The notes: a model not told the origin generated them from the letters alone. A DNA stretch of 64,000 nt from an uncultured delta proteobacterium (GCA_963772655.1 CAVYYE010000009.1:150343-214342); one strand, 5' to 3'. Numbered from the stretch's first letter, positions 4,256 through 15,969 are shown. Translations and numbers: made by a program.

Positions 4256-4285
4256 TTGACGGGCTTCGGCGAGAAGAGGTAGAAT
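4256..4285 (+). promoter_or_regulatory. Putative sigma-70-type promoter (TTGACG-N18-TAGAAT) about 9 nt upstream of the ATG of the first FHA gene; possibly a leaderless or short-leader transcript
   Basis: AT-rich hexamers TTGACG (4256-4261) and TAGAAT (4280-4285) stand out in a 70% GC background, placed immediately 5' of the ATG at 4295. Confidence 0.3.
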
Positions 4286-4294
4286 TTCGGCTCG

Positions 4295-5332
4295 ATGGAC
4301 GTCGGCCTGGTGTGCGACGCGTGCAGCGCGTTGACCCCGATCGGGGTACCGCATTGCAAGCGCTGCGGAGCTGACGTCGCGCTCGATCCGAGGCCGCGAT
4401 CACACAGTCAGCCACCACCGGACGGGCTTTCGCCGACGATTCCGGAATCCGCCAACCTCTCTTCGGCGACGACGACGTGCACCAAGTGTGGGAACGAAGC
4501 TTCCGATCACCTGAAGTTCTGCCCCAACTGCGGCGCGAAGCTGGGACCACCGAAGAACGCGTTCGACGTCGACATCGAGACCCGCGTCGGACCGCGATCG
4601 TCCGGATCGACTCCGGTCCCGAGCGATCCCGCCGTCGGCGGCGGGCCGATCAAGACCCCGCAGAAGACGTTGTTCTTCGGCGGTGCGCTGCAGTCGGCGC
4701 GCGCGAAGCTCACGCTGATCCGCGGCGACGGAGAGGACGGCGTGTCGTTCACGCTCGCCGGTACCGACCACGTCGCCGGGCGTGGCGACTGTCCGATCTC
4801 GTTTCCCGACGATCCGTTCCTGTCGCCGCATCACTGCAACTTCATCTATCGCGATCGCCAGCTGATCGTGCGCGACGAAGAATCGCTCAACGGCGTCTAC
4901 GTGCGGATCACCGACAAGGCCGACCTCCAGCCCGGTGGCACCGTGCTCGTCGGCGAACAGGTGCTCGTCGTGTCGCCCGTGAAGGCGCCCGAGGACCTTC
5001 CCGATGCGGAAGGCACCTATTACTCGACCAGCATCCAGCGGCCGGCCACGCTCGAGATCCAGCAGCAACTCCGCGGCGGCGCGGTCGGCTGGGTGTTCCG
5101 GCCCGAGGGCGACGTCGTGACGCTCGGTCGCGAGGGCAACGACATCAATTTTCCAGACGACCCGTTCATCTCGGGTCGTCATGCAGAGCTTCGGGTGACG
5201 GGTGGCGCGCTGTGCGTTACCGATCTAGGTTCGCGAAACGGCACGTTCGTTCGCATCGACGGCCAACGAGTGCTCGCACACGGAGACTACGTGTTCTTGG
5301 GACAGCAGCTGCTGCGCGTCGAAATCGTCTGA
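4295..5332 (+). CDS. Zinc-ribbon (double CxxC) protein with two FHA domains
   Basis: N-terminal CDAC...CKRCG and CTKCG...CPNCG zinc-ribbon motifs. Two FHA-like modules (VAGRGDCPISFPDDPFLSPHHCNFIYRD...; TLGREGNDINFPDDPFISGRHAELRV...SRNGTFV). Confidence 0.85.
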   Translation: MDVGLVCDACSALTPIGVPHCKRCGADVALDPRPRSHSQPPPDGLSPTIPESANLSSATTTCTKCGNEASDHLKFCPNCGAKLGPPKNAFDVDIETRVGPRSSGSTPVPSDPAVGGGPIKTPQKTLFFGGALQSARAKLTLIRGDGEDGVSFTLAGTDHVAGRGDCPISFPDDPFLSPHHCNFIYRDRQLIVRDEESLNGVYVRITDKADLQPGGTVLVGEQVLVVSPVKAPEDLPDAEGTYYSTSIQRPATLEIQQQLRGGAVGWVFRPEGDVVTLGREGNDINFPDDPFISGRHAELRVTGGALCVTDLGSRNGTFVRIDGQRVLAHGDYVFLGQQLLRVEIV

Positions 5333-5342
5333 GGGAGCCCAC

Positions 5343-6668
5343 ATGACCGTCTGCAACAGATGCGGGAAAGAAAACCAGGACCACTACAAGTTCTGCCTGG
5401 GATGCGGAGCCGAGCTATCGGCCGCACCGAAGCCGCCAGCGGGCGACATGGGCATGATGAAGACCATGATGGCGGACAACTCCCAGGGCTTCGGTCCGGG
5501 TGGTCCGGGTGGTCCTCCGGGACCGGGACCGGGACCGGGTCCGGGTGGACCGGGTCCGGGTCCGGGTCCGGGTCCGGTTGGTCCGGGTCCGATGGGACCG
5601 CCCCCGGGAATGCCCGGGATGCCGCCACCAGGACAGCAGCAGCGGGGGCCGTCCAACGCGATGCCGCAGCAGGGACCGCGTTCGGGTCCGATGGGCATGC
5701 CGCCCTCGGGACCGATCGGTGCGCCTCCGATGACACCTCCCCCGATGGGCCCGCCTCCCGGCGTGCCGGGATTCAATCCGGGCTTCGGACCACCCCCCGG
5801 TGGACCGAGTCCGTCGACCGGTCCGCGTCGCTGTCCGTCGTGCGGTAGCGACGTCCCGCCGACGTTCCGGTTCTGCGGCACGTGCGGCTTCCGCATGGAC
5901 GAGGGCTCGGCCCCGATGCAGATGCCGCAAGGCCCCGGCGGCGGACCCCCGATGGGTGGCCCCGGCCCGCAGATGGGTGGTCCGCAGATGGGTGGTCCGC
6001 AGATGGGTGGTCCGCAGATGGGTGGCCCGCAGCCCGCCCCCGCGCGACTGTCGATGACGCTGATCCGCCCGGACGGCACCGAGGGTGGCACCCACGAGCT
6101 GCGGCCCGGCGAGAACAAGATCGGTCGTAGCTTCGGTCCGATCTTCGAGAACGACGGTTACCTGTCGCCGGTCCACGCGGTGCTGATGATCCACGGCCCC
6201 AGCCAGGGCATGGTGAAGGACCTCGACAGCCTCAACGGCGTGTTCGTGAAGATGACGCAGGAGGAGGAGCTGACCTCCGGCCAGATCATCCGCATCGGAC
6301 AGGAGCTGCTGCGGTTCGAGCTCATCGCGTCGCCGGAGGCCACCCCCGACGGCACCGAGCTCATGGGCAGCCCCAACCCCGGCTACTGGGGCAAGCTGAC
6401 CGTGATCATCGGCCGCGACATCACCGGTGCGGCGTTCCCGCTCCTCGGCGACAACGTCACGCTCGGTCGCGAGCGCGGGGAGATCAACTTCCCCGACGAC
6501 GGTTATGTCTCGGGACTCCACGCGCGCGTCACGCTGCGTGACGGCCGGGTCTACCTCTCCGACCTCGGCAGCTCGAACGGCACGTTCATCAAGGTCAACG
6601 GAGAGCGCGGCGTCGGTAACGAGTCGTTCGTCCTCCTCGGCCAGCAGCTGTTCCGGCTCAACATCTAG
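5343..6668 (+). CDS. Zinc-ribbon / P-G-rich low-complexity / double-FHA protein (paralog of the upstream gene)
   Basis: CNRCG...CLGCG and CPSCG...CGTCG zinc ribbons. Long Pro/Gly-rich linker with (GPQMG)n and GPGPG repeats. Two FHA modules (KIGRSFGPIFENDGYLSPVHAVL...; TLGRERGEINFPDDGYVSGLHARV...SSNGTFI). SD-like GAGGGA upstream of the ATG. Confidence 0.85.
   Translation: MTVCNRCGKENQDHYKFCLGCGAELSAAPKPPAGDMGMMKTMMADNSQGFGPGGPGGPPGPGPGPGPGGPGPGPGPGPVGPGPMGPPPGMPGMPPPGQQQRGPSNAMPQQGPRSGPMGMPPSGPIGAPPMTPPPMGPPPGVPGFNPGFGPPPGGPSPSTGPRRCPSCGSDVPPTFRFCGTCGFRMDEGSAPMQMPQGPGGGPPMGGPGPQMGGPQMGGPQMGGPQMGGPQPAPARLSMTLIRPDGTEGGTHELRPGENKIGRSFGPIFENDGYLSPVHAVLMIHGPSQGMVKDLDSLNGVFVKMTQEEELTSGQIIRIGQELLRFELIASPEATPDGTELMGSPNPGYWGKLTVIIGRDITGAAFPLLGDNVTLGRERGEINFPDDGYVSGLHARVTLRDGRVYLSDLGSSNGTFIKVNGERGVGNESFVLLGQQLFRLNI
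5968..6033 (+). repeat. In-frame 15-bp tandem repeat (CCGCAGATGGGTGGT x about 4.4) encoding (PQMGG)n; upstream GGTCCG-type hexamer repeats at about 5492-5595
   Basis: Direct reading of the sequence: near-perfect head-to-tail copies inside the coding region of the second FHA gene. Confidence 0.9.
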
Positions 6669-6704
6669 CCGGGGTTCGGCGCACGGCGCCCGCGAAACCG
6701 GGCG

Positions 6705-7148
6705 CTATTTCTTTTTCTTGTGGGCGCCGCCGACGCCCTCGAGGTCGTCGACGGAGTATCCGGCGTCGTCCTTGCGGACGAACTTGAACGCCTTCTTGAT
6801 CGTCAGCTGACCGCCGGGATCGAAGATCACGAGCACGTCGACCACTTCGTCGGGCTTGCCACCCGGCGCCTGGACGATCAGCTCGGAGTCGCTCTGGAAC
6901 CGGATGATCGAACCCTGGCGAGATCCGAAGTAGACCTTGGCGTTGCGAGGACCGTCCTTGATGAACCGGTTCCCCTTGATCACCACGTAGGTCCCACCCT
7001 CGGTATCGCCGGTATCGGGCGATAGATCCGTCACCTTCAACTTGGGATCGTCATCGCCGCACGCCACTGCACCCAACGCGAGAGCCAGCAGCAACACGGG
7101 CCAGACGGCCCGTAACCACGGGGCATGCTGACGTCTCACGGCAGTCAT
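6705..7148 (-). CDS. Hypothetical small lipoprotein (147 aa)
   Basis: ATG at 7148 gives MTAVRRQHAPWLRAVWPVLLLALALGAVACG (signal peptide plus lipobox-like AVAC). C-terminal KKKK. The longer ORF extension upstream is low-complexity junk. Confidence 0.5.
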   Translation of the reverse strand: MTAVRRQHAPWLRAVWPVLLLALALGAVACGDDDPKLKVTDLSPDTGDTEGGTYVVIKGNRFIKDGPRNAKVYFGSRQGSIIRFQSDSELIVQAPGGKPDEVVDVLVIFDPGGQLTIKKAFKFVRKDDAGYSVDDLEGVGGAHKKKK

Positions 7149-10911: not shown

Positions 10912-11807
10912 GCACGACCTCCGGGATCAGGCATCGACCCGATCGCCTCGCCGAAGCGGACCATGCGGTCGGGCTCGAGCGCCAGCTGCGCACGACCTGC
11001 TTGCATCACCAGCACGACGGTCGAACCGAGCCGGAACGCGCCGAGCTCGTCGCCACGCGCGATCGGAATCTCCCCGAGCTCGACCCGCCGGCGTTCGTTC
11101 GCCTCCCGCAACGAGGCGCTGCTCGGGCCGTGCGCCAGCGTGATGTTGCCGACACCGGCGGCCGCAACCATGACCACGCAGACGTCGCCCGCCGACCCCG
11201 TGAGCTCGATGACGACGCGCTCGTTGCGCGCCAGTACGTTGTCGCGGCGTGCGGCGACCCGTGGATTGACCGGCCACAGCGCCCCGGGCAGATAGTCGTA
11301 GCCGACGAGCGTGCCGTCGACAGGAGCGTGCACGCGGTGGTAGTCGCGCGGAGACAGGTAGATGGTCGCGTAGTCGCCGCCGGCGAACCGCTCGGCGCGT
11401 GTCTCGCTCGCCAGGAGCGCGCCGAGCGTGTACTCCCGACCCTTGGCCTGGACGAGGATGCCGTCCGTGACGCGACCGCAGGCGGCGACCACGCCGTCAC
11501 ACGGCGCGCTGATCGCGCGAGGATCGGGATCGAGGGCGCGAGCACCATCGCGTAGTCGTCGCGCGAAGAAGTCGCCGAGCGACGGATACTCGTCGAGTGA
11601 CAGCTCGGGCTCCTCCAGGTTCGCACCGACCATGCGCGCGAACGCTCGGTACGCAAACGGTCGCAAACGCGTCGGTAACTCCTTCGCCGCGCCCCATCCC
11701 ACCAACGCCGAGTACATGCCGCCTACCGAACGACGGCGCAGACCGTGAGCGCCGACTGGCCACCGCTCCGTCGGCGAGACACCGGGTCCTGGCTTTTCGA
11801 AATCCAC
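10908..11807 (-). CDS. psd: Phosphatidylserine decarboxylase proenzyme
   Basis: YLSPRDYHRVHAPVDG motif and the C-terminal LGSTVV self-cleavage site (GST). GTG start at 11807; an alternative ATG at 11717 is possible. Confidence 0.85.
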   Translation of the reverse strand: MDFEKPGPGVSPTERWPVGAHGLRRRSVGGMYSALVGWGAAKELPTRLRPFAYRAFARMVGANLEEPELSLDEYPSLGDFFARRLRDGARALDPDPRAISAPCDGVVAACGRVTDGILVQAKGREYTLGALLASETRAERFAGGDYATIYLSPRDYHRVHAPVDGTLVGYDYLPGALWPVNPRVAARRDNVLARNERVVIELTGSAGDVCVVMVAAAGVGNITLAHGPSSASLREANERRRVELGEIPIARGDELGAFRLGSTVVLVMQAGRAQLALEPDRMVRFGEAIGSMPDPGGRA

Positions 11808-11953
11808 GCTGGTCGGAATCCCCCAGGCGTATCGTGGCGGTCACGAGGCCCGTTTTGGTGATTCTGCCAGGGGCCCCGCCGAGTTACAAGCACGGGGGGG
11901 CAGTGCGACGGTGGCTCGAATGAGGGAAATGGAGCCAGATGTAGGACGGAAAC

Positions 11954-12292
<339 letters not shown>

Positions 12293-12340: not shown

Positions 12341-14197
12341 TTATTGTTTCGGGATCTTCGCCATGAAGGCCTCGATCCGATGCATGCGTTCGGCCTGGGG
12401 CTTGTCGTACTGCAAGAAGATCATCAGCTCGTTGTACTCGCCGTCGAGCCGGCCGCCGTTCTTGGTCTTGTATGCGGTGTAGAGACGTCGCGCCTTCAGG
12501 AACTTGTTGGTCACCATGTCCTTGGTGATCTTGCTCGCGGTCTTGTCGGCGGACGGGGTCTCCTTGCGCGGGATCTTCGGATGGCTCGGGCGGACGCGCG
12601 GTCGCACCGGCGCGACCCTCGGCGAGTGGTCGGTACCGGTGTCGTCGGTGTCGTCGGTGTCGTCGGTGTCGTTGTCGTTGGCGCCGTTCGCATTCGAGCC
12701 CGCCGCGGCATGCGTGTGGGCGCTCGGCTCCTGCGTGGGCTCGGGAATCGGCTCGACCGTCATCGTGGTCGGCGGCGTGGTGGCCACCACGTCGTCGGTG
12801 TCGAGCTCGTCGTCGGCGCCGCCGCCTCCACGCATCACGAGCACGAGGATCAACACGACGGCCGCGGCCACCACCGCGCCGATCGCGTAGAGCCAGGTGC
12901 GGTCGCGGGCGAACGTGGGCTCCGGCGTGAACACCGTGCGTTCGGCGGTCCCGGTGCCGTCGGCAAGCGAGAGGTCGACATCGGATCCCGAGGCACCCGC
13001 GGGTACTGGTGGTGGCGTTGGCGGCAACGATCCGGGGCGTACGGAGGGACGCTGCGCCGACTGGCGCGTCGACACGCGCTGCGGTGGCGGGAGCTCGGCG
13101 GACGATGCCGGCAGCTGCGCGAGCGCGAACGACACCGTCGAGATCGTCTGGGTGTGAAACGCTTCCTGGAAGTCGGAGAGGTGCGCGCTGGCGACGCGAT
13201 CGTGGAGCTCGCGCTGCGCCGTCATCTCCTCGGAGAACAGATCGCGCATGTAGCTACCGAGCTGGTCGGTCGAGATCGTGGGGTTGACCGCGACCAGCGC
13301 TTGCTGGATCGCGTCGCGGAACTCGGCGGCCGACTGGTACCGATCCTCGGGCTTGGGGCGCAGCGCCGTCGCGACCAGATCGTCGTACGGCGCCAGCATC
13401 GGATCGATCTCCGAGGGCAACGGGTGCTCGCCCTTGGCGACCTTCTTGGCGAGCGCACGGTAGTCGGGCTCGGGACCGGCCTCGTAGAGACGCTGCCCGG
13501 TCAACAGCTCGTAGAGCACCACGCCCGCCGCGTAGATATCGGTGCGGTGATCGACGACGCCACCGCGGATCAACTGCTCGGGTGCCATGTACCCGAACTT
13601 GCCGAACCCCATCTTCGGATCGGTCGCGGTGCCGCGCAGCGCGCTCTTCGCGATCCCGAAGTCGATGACCTTGGTCTCGCCCTCGAACGACACCAGCACG
13701 TTGGGTGGCGAGATATCGCAGTGGACGAGGTTGAGCGAGGCACCGTCGATGCTGGTCCGCCGGTGCGCGTAGGCCAGGCCGTTGGCGAGCTCGCGACCGA
13801 TGAACAGGGCGAGGTCGACCGGCAGCCGCTCCTTCCTGCGACCGAGCAGCGACAGGATGCGCCGGAGGTCGCGCCCCTCGACGTACTCGAGCGCGAGGAA
13901 GTACTCGTCGCCGCAGCGTCCGACCTCGAACACCTGCGCGACGTTGACGTGCTGGAGCTTGATCGCGACCTGGGCCTCGTCGACGAACCGCGAGATGAAC
14001 GACTCGTCGGCCGCGAGGTGCGGCAGCACCTTCTTGATCACCGCGAGCTTCTCGAACCCGGCAAGGCCGTGCTTGGCCAGGAAGATCTCGCCCATGCCCC
14101 CGCGGGACAGCCGCTGGATCAGCAGGTACCGGCCGAACACCTGAGGGAGGCTCGGATCCTGTCGGCCGAAAGGCCCGCTGTGCGCAGCTTTATCCAC
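12341..14197 (-). CDS. Eukaryotic-like Ser/Thr protein kinase (non-RD type) with a C-terminal TM segment and Pro-rich tail
   Basis: Gly-loop LSRGGMGEIF, VAIK-like AVIKKV, catalytic loop VHCDISPPNVLV (HRD replaced by HCD), DFG (VIDFGIAKS), APE (YMAPEQ). Probable GTG start at 14197; the longer ORF to 14344 would abut the divergent gene. Confidence 0.85.
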   Translation of the reverse strand: MDKAAHSGPFGRQDPSLPQVFGRYLLIQRLSRGGMGEIFLAKHGLAGFEKLAVIKKVLPHLAADESFISRFVDEAQVAIKLQHVNVAQVFEVGRCGDEYFLALEYVEGRDLRRILSLLGRRKERLPVDLALFIGRELANGLAYAHRRTSIDGASLNLVHCDISPPNVLVSFEGETKVIDFGIAKSALRGTATDPKMGFGKFGYMAPEQLIRGGVVDHRTDIYAAGVVLYELLTGQRLYEAGPEPDYRALAKKVAKGEHPLPSEIDPMLAPYDDLVATALRPKPEDRYQSAAEFRDAIQQALVAVNPTISTDQLGSYMRDLFSEEMTAQRELHDRVASAHLSDFQEAFHTQTISTVSFALAQLPASSAELPPPQRVSTRQSAQRPSVRPGSLPPTPPPVPAGASGSDVDLSLADGTGTAERTVFTPEPTFARDRTWLYAIGAVVAAAVVLILVLVMRGGGGADDELDTDDVVATTPPTTMTVEPIPEPTQEPSAHTHAAAGSNANGANDNDTDDTDDTDDTGTDHSPRVAPVRPRVRPSHPKIPRKETPSADKTASKITKDMVTNKFLKARRLYTAYKTKNGGRLDGEYNELMIFLQYDKPQAERMHRIEAFMAKIPKQ

Positions 14198-14346
14198 CGA
14201 CGGTTGCAACGAGCAAATCCTAACCCAGCGGGGGATTCCTACAACGATCACCTCGCGGGCCCAAGCGATCTGTGGGACCTGGCATAAGCCGTTGTGATCC
14301 GAGTGGTTGTAGGTGTCCATGTGGGTCTGATAGGGTGCCTCCAAGC

Positions 14347-15969
14347 ATGCGGGGCCTGGCGCTCGTCTCCGCGGGACTGTCGCTCGGCCTTCTGGGAGGC
14401 TGCACGACGGAGGGGTCGTTCGACCTCGAGCTCGTGTTGCCGACCGATCCAGCGCTGCGGCCGACCGGCATGACGACCGTCACCGTGACGCTCACGTCGG
14501 AGGGCGCACCGCCGGTATCGACGACGAGCGTGCTCGACGGCAACTCGTTCTCGGCCGGCGACCTCGCGGTCGCCGACGACGTCAAGCTCTCGGTGCAGCT
14601 CCGCGACGTGTCGAATCGCCTGGTCGGCGTCGGTGAAGCGCCGGACCTGATCGACATCGTCGGCAGCCAGGCGACGGCGGTCTCGATCCCGGTGCGCCGG
14701 CCGTTCGTGTACGCGAGCAACGGCTCGTCGCTGCTGTCGTTCGATCCCACGCTCGACGCCACCGACACCAAGTTCCAGGGTCAGATCTCCGGGGTGTCGT
14801 CGCCGCGGGTCGCGGTGTCGGTCGGTGGCGACCGGCTCGCGATCGTCTCGAGCTCGCAGGTCAGCGTGATCGCCACCGACACCAACCAGGTCGTGGGCTC
14901 GCCGATCACGCTGTCCGGCGAGACACGCGATGCCACCGCGATCCCGAACTCGCGGCGGATCGCGATCGCCGGCGACAACGGGATCACGGTCGTCGACATC
15001 GACACCGGTGCGATGACCACGACACAGGTCAGCGGTGTCGACCGGATCACCGTCGGACCGGCGCAGGACGGACGGATGATCGTCCACGGCCTGATCGGGC
15101 GCGTCCAACCCGAGGTCAACCCGCTGCTCGGATGCACCGGCTCGTCGTCGATCGTCCAGTTCGACGTCGATGCGGCGCCCCAGAGCGTGACCCCGCAGAC
15201 GCTGCCCGAGCCGGTCTCGGATCTCGCGGCGGCCCCCGAGAACGTCGGCCTGTTCGCGACGCTGCCGTGCAGCGGCAAGGTCGTGCGCATCCAGGGCGAC
15301 ATCGAGACGGGCAACGCCACGTTCGAGGACTTCGCCACCCTGCCCCGCGCCGCCGCGGTCGCGGTCGCCGGCGGTCGCGTGATCGCCGCCGGCACCCAGA
15401 AATCGACGCCCGTGTGCCAGGACCAGAACGGCATGACCTCGTGTCGGCCCGACTCGTCGACCAGCTGCTCCGGCGGGGTGACCCAGACCGCGGTCGCGTT
15501 CGTCTCCGACGGCGCGCACCTGGTCGTGCTGTCGAGCCCGCTCGACGGCGGGATGCCGATCACGATCGACCTCCCGGATCGGCGCGAGACCATCGTCGAT
15601 ACCGGCGACGATGCCCAGCAACACGCGCAGGTGCTCAACGCGTTCGGCACGACGCCGATCGATCTGGTCGCCCTGCCCGGCGGTCAGCACGTCGCGGTCA
15701 TCACCCAGAGCAACTACGTGATCACGGCGCTGCGCGACAACCTCGGCAACCCGATCCTGCCGTGTCTCAACGCCACCACCGCCGACTGGCTGCTGGTCGA
15801 CCTCGCGACCACGTCGGTCGCGCAGCGCGTGCGGACGTCGTGCGGCGTCGATGTCGGGCCGTCGACCGTGTTCCCGCAGTGGGGATGCGATGTCCCGCCG
15901 CCCGGCGAGCGATCGAGCTTCGGCGAGTACACGCCGACGTCGGTCGGCGCCCTGTTCGGAGCGCGCTGA
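14347..15969 (+). CDS. Hypothetical lipoprotein (about 540 aa), secreted
   Basis: ATG at 14347: MRGLALVSAGLSLGLLGGCTTEG (lipoprotein signal). No recognisable catalytic motifs. Confidence 0.6.
   Translation: MRGLALVSAGLSLGLLGGCTTEGSFDLELVLPTDPALRPTGMTTVTVTLTSEGAPPVSTTSVLDGNSFSAGDLAVADDVKLSVQLRDVSNRLVGVGEAPDLIDIVGSQATAVSIPVRRPFVYASNGSSLLSFDPTLDATDTKFQGQISGVSSPRVAVSVGGDRLAIVSSSQVSVIATDTNQVVGSPITLSGETRDATAIPNSRRIAIAGDNGITVVDIDTGAMTTTQVSGVDRITVGPAQDGRMIVHGLIGRVQPEVNPLLGCTGSSSIVQFDVDAAPQSVTPQTLPEPVSDLAAAPENVGLFATLPCSGKVVRIQGDIETGNATFEDFATLPRAAAVAVAGGRVIAAGTQKSTPVCQDQNGMTSCRPDSSTSCSGGVTQTAVAFVSDGAHLVVLSSPLDGGMPITIDLPDRRETIVDTGDDAQQHAQVLNAFGTTPIDLVALPGGQHVAVITQSNYVITALRDNLGNPILPCLNATTADWLLVDLATTSVAQRVRTSCGVDVGPSTVFPQWGCDVPPPGERSSFGEYTPTSVGALFGAR

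Follow-up and report, generated by a model that had tools for sequence, protein, structure and literature searches.

What is the function of two adjacent bacterial genes whose products each combine zinc ribbons with a pair of FHA domains, and why does the second of them carry microsatellites inside its reading frame? The question is raised by genes A and B, which lie in a 64,000-nucleotide stretch of DNA (hereafter the window; G+C ~68%) from an uncultured delta proteobacterium (GCA_963772655.1 CAVYYE010000009.1:150343-214342) and belong to a myxobacterium of the family Kofleriaceae. Among the proteins known to read bacterial Ser/Thr-kinase signals, FHA adaptors form the main class, and the kinomes of myxobacteria are very large; to our knowledge, few myxobacterial kinase-signal readers have been assigned so far. 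An earlier note on this DNA had described the two genes as double-FHA paralogs, the second with an acquired linker prone to changes in length. Our analysis favors, with a probability of about 0.7, the view that A and B are co-transcribed, soluble, cytoplasmic scaffolds that act as bivalent readers of phosphothreonine, and that their linkers evolve by ordinary in-frame slippage.

Both open reading frames (ORFs) have coding-type codon bias, with a G+C content at third codon positions (GC3) of 0.81 in A and 0.83 in B. The earlier assignment of two FHA domains to each protein stood or fell with a profile search, and it holds: the Pfam FHA profile (PF00498) matches two stretches in A (E=5.4e-24, 84.8 bits) and two in B (E=3.5e-17, 63.0 bits), far over the curated gathering score of 20.7 bits, and the phosphothreonine-pocket residues are intact in all four domains. 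A and B share 38% identity over 213 aa across both FHA domains, in collinear order (E=2e-40), and ribbon 2 of A is 58% identical to ribbon 1 of B over 24 aa. Judged by sequence, A and B are adjacent paralogs, and since the collinearity extends over both FHA domains, the tandem FHA predates the A/B duplication. Neither protein contains a hydrophobic segment compatible with a membrane span (maximum Kyte-Doolittle hydropathy 1.24 in A and 1.04 in B). When A and B were searched against NCBIfam, the best scores for the named FHA classes stayed under the cut-offs, with 76.2 bits for FhaB/FipA (NF049868; cut-off 125), 58.2 bits for OdhI (NF041660; cut-off 200) and 38.9 bits for TagH, a protein of type VI secretion systems (T6SS) (TIGR03354; cut-off 120.25).

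A scan of genomes with A as query yielded 80 loci, all from metagenome-assembled genomes (MAGs) of Kofleriaceae, Haliangiales or Polyangia, in which the best match to A is 72% identical and the A orthologs are 320-378 aa long; 70 B orthologs were recoverable from the same set. The tandem FHA measures 207-209 aa across these 70 orthologs, the one outlier resulting from ORF calling, and in most of them it is 80-89% identical to that of the window and free of indels. In an alignment of 48 B homologues the pocket residues G261-R262, S275/H278, N298-G299, G375-R376, S390/H393 and N412-G413 are invariant, and the equivalent positions are conserved in the 80 A orthologs. A broader family sample, 42-69% identical, retains FHA1 R31/H47/N67 and FHA2 R145/S159/H162/N181 without exception. 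The connector of ~20 aa between FHA1 and FHA2, P-x-x-T-x-D-G-T-E-L-M-G-S-P-N-P-G-Y-W-G-K, is almost invariant in the 48 B homologues. The tandem FHA is under strong purifying selection at fixed length, and the conserved pockets support the reading of A and B as putative FHA-type phosphothreonine readers.

An AlphaFold2 (AF2) model of B residues 232-441 reached a predicted local distance difference test score (pLDDT) of 87.1 and a predicted template-modeling score (pTM) of 0.82. The latter value implies a defined mutual orientation of both FHA domains, and the tandem is predicted to be compact and to form one rigid unit. A Foldseek search with this model against the PDB returned matches of probability 1.00 to solved FHA domains; among the fold matches of B are FhaA, GarA/OdhI, ArnA, CT664, EmbR, DgcB and MDC1. 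The matches to this model are single FHA domains that cover half of it (query-normalized template-modeling score, TMq, <=0.33), and a solved structure with a compact tandem FHA was not found among the PDB fold matches. The AF2 model of full-length B is too poor (pLDDT 63, pTM 0.44) to inform on contacts of the FHA domains with ribbons or motifs, and its Foldseek E-values are weak.

Upstream of the tandem, each protein carries two zinc ribbons of the four-cysteine type. B scores 44.4 bits with Zn_Ribbon_1 (PF13240), in two stretches, and 39.9 bits with DZR (PF12773); the corresponding values for A are 26.8 and 30.9 bits, at cut-offs of 25 bits for Zn_Ribbon_1 and 27.3 bits for DZR. In each of the 80 A orthologs and 70 B orthologs the pattern C..C-8-16-C..C is found two times, so that the second ribbon of B is not an extra one, as had been supposed earlier, A and B having two ribbons each. 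The N-terminal 32 aa are almost invariant across the A orthologs, and so are residues 1-25 across the B homologues.

The Pro/Gly-rich linker of ~180 aa with in-frame tandem repeats that had been noted in B is confirmed by measurement: the two B linkers together comprise 183 aa, with 33% P, 30% G and 11% M. Tandem Repeats Finder (TRF) reports two arrays, with periods of 15 and 6 and both in frame; the first encodes (PQMGG)4 and the second is a TCCGGG-type hexamer array (x11.7, 81% matches) at 5516-5591. In the PQMGG array, three units agree in every one of their 15 bases, and a single synonymous T>C change sets the fourth apart; the near-identity of the units indicates that the expansion is recent. 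Compared with 2000 codon shuffles of the same B linker, the longest exact self-match at offset 15 is 44 nt and that at offset 6 is 22 nt; the null maximum is 15 in both cases, and none of the 2000 shuffles reaches either value. As a family-wide observation, both linkers are rich in methionine (11% in linker 1 and 9% in linker 2), with recurrent P-M-G and M-P-P units; metal binding, the sensing of oxidation or mere drift in codons and composition may account for this.

All 70 B orthologs have the same layout of ribbon 1 at residues 4-21, a long linker, ribbon 2, a short linker and the tandem FHA. The long linker and ribbon 2 are therefore ancestral to the B lineage and were not acquired in this genome, contrary to the earlier suggestion; only the PQMGG expansion is lineage-specific. 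Across the 70 orthologs, the length of linker 1 lies between 85 and 186 aa (standard deviation 21.6) and that of linker 2 between 18 and 48 aa (median 25), the 48 aa of the window being the longest. The excess in the window consists of the PQMGG array, which is present as a single copy in the three closest relatives and absent from all others, and PQMGG x4 is a recent, lineage-specific expansion. The (GP)5 run of B is likewise the longest among the 70 orthologs. Other lineages have enlarged other pentapeptides (GPGPM x5, GGGPM x7, PPMQP x4). Tandem repeats at the DNA level were detected in 56 of the 70 B orthologs, almost all in linker 1; the linker arrays have periods from 6 to 69, mainly 12, 15, 18 and 27, that are with two exceptions multiples of 3.

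No relative of A or B above 90% identity was found, both being singletons at that level among ~15 billion proteins, and the closest relative in the databases is ~80% identical; a comparison within clusters of orthologs stands in for a strain-level comparison of the window gene. In six such 90%-identity clusters, with members ~88-94% identical or more, lengths differ by up to 17 aa. Gaps occupy 12-37 columns of linker 1, 0-4 columns of linker 2 and none of the ribbons; the FHA region is gapped in cluster 3 alone, over 10 columns, probably owing to read-level sequences with many errors. The gaps within the six clusters correspond to gained or lost repeat units. Repeat number is thus clearly unequal among the relatives, copy number varying across the 70 orthologs, and at the family level the data support the proposal that the repeat-encoded linkers vary in length by in-frame slippage; for the strain level, to which the earlier note had also extended it, close relatives of the window genes are lacking. 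The linkers are free in length and constrained in composition, with a few invariant short motifs.

Two of these motifs lie in B linker 1. The 48 aligned homologues share M38 to M43 without exception, and at least 90% of them retain A44 and D45; in the island preceding ribbon 2 the stretch P134-M-G-P-P-P-G-x-P142 is invariant, with V141 and G-F-S-P-G-F 143-148 nearly so. Further invariant islands are M119-P-P and the R-M-D-E that follows ribbon 2. The counterpart of the B sequence K-T-M-M in A is K-T-L-F-F. A strict K-T-hydrophobic motif was found in 13 of 109 diverse family representatives, compared with 0.7% of shuffled controls; it is enriched and not family-wide, and was rejected as a universal signature of the family.

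The family to which A and B belong is defined here by a C-terminal collinear tandem FHA of ~208 aa that follows one or two four-cysteine ribbons, of which ribbon 1 is located around residue 4. Searched exhaustively, the tandem recovered 6584 representatives (clusters at 50% identity) at E<=1e-3 and 317 at E<=1e-30, and family members match the tandem as one C-terminal stretch. Of the 109 sampled members, most carry two ribbons, with ribbon 1 located at residue 4 and ribbon 2 at variable distance, and gene A fits this ribbon, ribbon, tandem-FHA family at 36-38% identity. The source names are generic ('FHA domain-containing protein') and come from Kofleriaceae, Polyangia, Nannocystaceae and 'Deltaproteobacteria' records; named or cultured members in the profile search amount to generic MAG names and one isolate-like record from Nannocystaceae. 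The family is mainly myxobacterial (class Polyangia), and no characterized zinc-ribbon/tandem-FHA protein from myxobacteria was found in the literature.

Three relatives place the entire B-type layout, from ribbon over K-T-M-M and P/G linker to the second ribbon and the tandem FHA, downstream of a conserved unknown region and a TIR domain. P0221, with 63% identity over the tandem, is a TIR-ribbon-ribbon-tandem-FHA fusion that keeps K-T-M-M-A and the R-R-C-P-S-C-G...R-M-D-E ribbon. The other two, P0230 and P0232 (50-53% identity over the tandem), have in addition an N-terminal protein-kinase domain (850-1007 aa), giving Pkinase-TIR-ribbon-ribbon-tandem-FHA. These kinase-domain fusions are the strongest computational link of the family to Ser/Thr-kinase signaling. 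At the other extreme of size, many members among P0365-P0483, e.g., P0413 with a cluster of 69, are only ~220 aa long and consist of the tandem FHA without ribbons; some may be fragments from short contigs, others lie on contigs of >6 kb.

The coordinates of all features are collected in Table 1.

Table 1 Features of the A-B locus and its neighborhood, in window coordinates
Feature	Position	Strand	Remarks
TPR + HEAT-repeat protein, 1357 aa	159-4232	+	Directly upstream of A; apparent N-terminal signal peptide
Sigma-70-type promoter-like site, TTGACG-N18-TAGAAT	4256..4285	+	-10 element ends 9 nt before the A ATG
Gene A, 345 aa	4295..5332	+	Ribbon, short spacer, ribbon, spacer, tandem FHA
A zinc ribbon 1, C7xxC10...C21xxC24 (aa 7-24)	4313..4366	+	Pfam; ortholog alignment
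A zinc ribbon 2, C62xxC65...C76xxC79 (aa 62-79)	4478..4531	+	Pfam; ortholog alignment
A motif K124-T125-L-F-F	4664..4678	+	Just before the A FHA module; Thr in at least 95% of orthologs
A tandem FHA (aa 135-345)	4697..5329	+	Pfam; A/B alignment; orthologs
Gene B, 441 aa	5343..6668	+	Start 10 nt past the A stop; GGGAG Shine-Dalgarno before B
B zinc ribbon 1, C4xxC7...C18xxC21 (aa 4-21)	5352..5405	+	Pfam; ortholog alignment
B linker 1 (aa 26-160)	5418..5822	+	Pro/Gly/Met-rich, predicted disordered (composition, AF2)
Island M38-M-K-T41-M-M-A-D45 in B linker 1	5454..5477	+	Candidate phospho-acceptor or docking motif
GGTCCG/GGACCG-type microsatellite	5493..5591	+	Periods 6, 9, 33; encodes GPGGPGGP...(GP)n
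Island P-M-G-P-P-P-G-V-P-G-F-x-P-G-F (aa 134-148)	5742..5786	+	Just before B ribbon 2; proline-rich, candidate ligand motif
B zinc ribbon 2, C164xxC167...C178xxC181 (aa 164-181)	5832..5885	+	Pfam; ortholog alignment
B linker 2 (aa 186-233), 48 aa	5898..6041	+	Ortholog comparison
15-bp in-frame array CCGCAGATGGGTGGT x4.4	5967..6032	+	Encodes (PQMGG)4; TRF, 98% matches
B tandem FHA (aa 234-441), 208 aa	6042..6665	+	Pfam; orthologs; AF2 model
Terminator-like GC-rich hairpin + T-run	6685..6716	+	Directly after the B stop; oriented toward the convergent TIG gene
Small lipoprotein-like IPT/TIG-domain protein ending KKKK	6705-7118	-	Convergent with B
RpoD-like sigma-70 factor, 457 aa	7196-8572	-	Convergent with B; eight consecutive Asp in N-terminal part
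Ser/Thr kinase	12341-14344	-	Syntenic, 5-8 kb away, in 32/40 loci

The promoter-like site upstream of A matches the consensus at 10 of 12 positions, at 0.2 sites expected per region, and the consensus CGTTCTTTGACG-N17/18-GGTAGAAT recurs in 72 of the 77 orthologous loci, in each of which it ends 8-11 nt before the A ATG. This distance implies that the A mRNA is leaderless or nearly so, and gene A is probably translated from a message with no leader or one of 1-3 nt, the gap being too short for any Shine-Dalgarno sequence. The gap between A and B, 10 nt in the window, is 7-81 nt in the orthologs. Because of the conserved promoter, the short A-B gap and the terminator after B, A-B most likely forms a bicistron of its own, to which the upstream TPR/HEAT gene does not belong.

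The locus forms part of a block conserved in the 80-locus set, in which the TPR/HEAT gene, A and B are followed on the opposite strand by the TIG lipoprotein and the sigma-70 factor. Among the 40 long loci, the TPR/HEAT gene is syntenic with A-B in 37, and the TIG and sigma-70 genes lie beside B in 39; against NCBIfam, the TPR/HEAT protein gave only sub-threshold matches, to PrsT, GltE and Tgl-like TPR lipoproteins. Synteny extends further, over phosphatidylserine decarboxylase, P-II and the Ser/Thr kinase, to a region of ~14 kb. The locus was present in every Kofleriaceae genome sampled, with no effector signature, mobile-element signature or GC anomaly, and is a stable, vertically inherited core region. 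A nearby Ser/Thr kinase, for which the earlier note had proposed to look, does exist. It is the one kinase in the window, where A and B are the only FHA proteins; the abundant Ser/Thr-kinase signaling ascribed to this genome is not shown by the window. As to the surroundings of the kinase gene, a 565-aa ORF at 14272-15969 (+), of strong coding bias (GC3 0.90) and without a match in Pfam or NCBIfam, has a called start that overlaps that of the divergent kinase gene by ~70 nt; for one of the two genes the start codon was probably called wrongly. In one locus, L081, a 251-aa kinase-like gene (11303-12058, minus strand) lies between the TIG gene and a B that is 80% identical; its absence from the window and the other 80 loci led us to reject a regular insertion of a kinase gene at this position.

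In the mechanism that we propose, the tandem FHA would read, in a bivalent manner, threonines that Hanks-type Ser/Thr kinases have phosphorylated, and the ribbons and the linker motifs (M-M-K-T-M-M-A-D and P-P-M-G-P-P-P-G-V-P-G-F) would bring in further partners, so that A and B scaffold phosphorylation-dependent complexes. A kinase may also phosphorylate the K-T-hydrophobic motif, which would then be read in cis or in trans. We take the microsatellites for no separate device: these Pro/Gly/Met-rich linkers ordinarily evolve through in-frame replication slippage, in units from 6 bp up to 45 bp or longer. Several observations weigh against this mechanism. Invariance of the K-T-hydrophobic motif is limited to the Kofleriaceae orthologs, the serine of the FHA1 S-x-x-H motif is substituted in some distant relatives, and in the poor full-length AF2 model (pLDDT 63) neither ribbons nor motifs dock onto the FHA domains. 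The kinase synteny may only reflect a generally conserved chromosome region, and since the whole ~14-kb region is syntenic, the proximity of the kinase is weak evidence of a functional link. Because no member of the family has been studied, we infer phosphothreonine binding, the partners, the kinase and the cellular process alike.

A refinement that does not exclude the scaffold mechanism, and that we hold possible if tentative, is that A and B are phospho-switchable and self-assembling, like Rv1747 or the T6SS protein Fha: a kinase would modify the threonine of K-T-M-M in B and of K-T-L-F-F in A, and the tandem FHA of another molecule would bind it, giving oligomers or condensates whose properties follow linker length. 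The invariant threonine motifs within otherwise variable linkers are consistent with this, as are two intact FHA pockets per protein in fixed arrangement, the long disordered linkers, the co-expression of two paralogs, and the published precedents of PknF-driven phase separation in Rv1747 and of liquid-liquid phase separation (LLPS) in Fha. The evidence is indirect throughout, however, and the motif is confined to 13 of 109 family representatives, with no cis docking in the full-length AF2 model. FHA domains also have a classic preference for certain residues at position +3 after the phosphothreonine, among which alanine, the +3 residue in B, does not figure. A bolder version, in which A and B form a kinase-switched multivalent condensate or polymer, with the K-T motif read in trans by the FHA of the partner and slippage re-tuning the linker length, appears rather doubtful. 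If true, the assembly would owe its reach or its material properties to the Pro/Gly/Met linkers, whose 11% methionine could make them sensitive to oxidation, and the kinase-TIR-fused relatives would represent an 'all-in-one' version of the circuit.

The similarity of A and B to ArnA, which combines a zinc finger with an FHA domain in a phosphorylation-dependent repressor module and is matched in both sequence and fold, together with the sigma-70 gene found next to A-B in 39 of 40 long loci, raises the question of whether A and B are gene regulators of the ArnA/EmbR kind, whose ribbons bind nucleic acid or the transcription machinery and respond to a kinase, e.g., via this sigma factor. We regard this as unlikely: the adjacency is unspecific given the synteny of the entire region, the sigma-70 gene is convergent and not co-transcribed with A-B, such four-cysteine ribbons are generic interaction modules, no DNA-binding domain was detected in A or B by Pfam, and no vWA (ArnB-like) domain was found among the neighboring genes. 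It is still less probable that the microsatellites form a contingency locus of selected hypermutable switches that gives adaptive strain variation in B. Copy number does differ among near-identical family relatives, and the arrays of the window are nearly perfect at the DNA level, but both are in frame, which modulates length and does not switch expression; a phase-variable on/off locus operating by frameshift is thereby rejected, and the ortholog arrays likewise keep almost entirely to multiples of 3. The protein is moreover cytoplasmic with no evident diversifying pressure, and the repeat units differ by lineage (GPGPM, GGGPM, PPMQP, PQMGG), as expected under neutral drift of composition-constrained disorder. 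The fusions of P0230 and P0232 (Pkinase-TIR) and P0221 (TIR) to ribbons and tandem FHA, and the matches of these relatives to the PADLOC kinase (PD-T4-6) and TIR models, could point to an anti-phage or conflict system, a reading that we consider highly improbable, because those matches represent homology of a generic kind to kinases and TIR domains, neither A nor B matches any of the families of PADLOC-DB 2.0 at E<=1e-3, and the locus is a stable core locus without mobile or effector signature.

The scaffold reading leaves the current understanding of FHA proteins in place, and the value of the analysis lies in annotation and in generating hypotheses. It defines a large, conserved and unstudied family of readers, with at least 317 clusters at 50% identity, whose rigid tandem of two intact FHA domains is unusual, whose linker motifs can be tested as phospho- or docking sites, and whose natural kinase/TIR fusions point to its signaling partners. 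The B linkers also illustrate cleanly, in a natural case, the evolution of disordered linkers: their composition and short motifs are kept while length drifts through in-frame microsatellite slippage.

The published analogues, i.e., GarA/OdhI, DgcB, MDC1, Rv1747, T6SS Fha and GltJ/AglZ, can serve as a model for A and B by analogy. In domain order, A and B also recall FraH of the cyanobacterium Anabaena sp. PCC 7120, which we take to have a double ribbon, a Pro-rich region and a single C-terminal FHA domain. For a Deinococcus FHA protein described as a FraH ortholog, the operon also includes genes for a kinase, a PP2C phosphatase and a vWA protein. ArnA of Sulfolobus acidocaldarius (PDB code 5a8i) resembles A and B in its N-terminal four-cysteine ribbon, its linker and its C-terminal FHA domain with a functional phospho-recognition motif, and in a phmmer comparison residues 3-42 (ribbon) and 370-417 (FHA2) of B align with it, weakly (E=1.2e-4). 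ArnA is one half of the ArnA-ArnB module that represses the archaellum, and binds its partner in a phosphorylation-dependent manner. It is, however, archaeal, has one ribbon and one FHA domain, lacks a Pro/Gly repeat linker and is paired with the vWA protein ArnB; with two ribbons, two FHA domains and no vWA neighbor, A and B do not belong to a module of the ArnA-ArnB type.

The adaptor FhaA of Mycobacterium tuberculosis (Rv0020c/TB39.8) combines a C-terminal FHA domain with a long disordered linker, and its structure 3oun is the best sequence match to B among solved structures (E=8.8e-8), in an alignment that includes a Gly/Pro/Gln-rich stretch before the FHA domain. FhaA is reported to bind a phosphorylated pseudokinase domain (3oun); it differs from A and B in having a single FHA domain, no zinc ribbons and a different N-terminal domain. 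The ABC transporter Rv1747 combines two FHA domains with a disordered region in one polypeptide, and its FHA-linker-FHA module phase-separates on phosphorylation by PknF, through kinase-dependent multivalent self-association. In Rv1747 the disordered linker, with its phosphothreonines, lies between the FHA domains, whereas in A and B the disorder is upstream; the conserved connector of ~20 aa, the single modeled unit and the absence of a transporter domain set A and B apart from dual-FHA modules of the Rv1747 type. For T6SS Fha, LLPS requires the FHA domain plus a disordered region.

GarA/OdhI and DgcB of Bdellovibrio, which match in fold and sequence, offer a model for an upstream threonine motif that acts as an intramolecular switch. 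In GarA/OdhI, DgcB, MDC1 and Rv1747 the FHA domains read a phosphorylated stretch of their own protein, which in GarA/OdhI and DgcB is the N-terminal tail, and by analogy we hypothesize that A and B might bind themselves through their FHA domains, although GarA/OdhI and DgcB have a single FHA domain, short tails, no ribbons and defined enzyme targets. GltJ of Myxococcus xanthus has a cytoplasmic N-terminal zinc ribbon and a long disordered linker with discrete motifs, and is likened to A and B by the generic ribbon type only. Its N-terminal region consists of the ribbon, which binds its own linker, 95 residues of disordered linker and a GYF domain, and the work on GltJ/AglZ identifies proline-rich sequences as ligands for bacterial GYF domains; unlike A and B, GltJ is a membrane-anchored component of the gliding motor without FHA domains. 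Placed among these systems, the ribbon/tandem-FHA proteins are an uncharacterized architectural variant within the well-known class of FHA adaptors.

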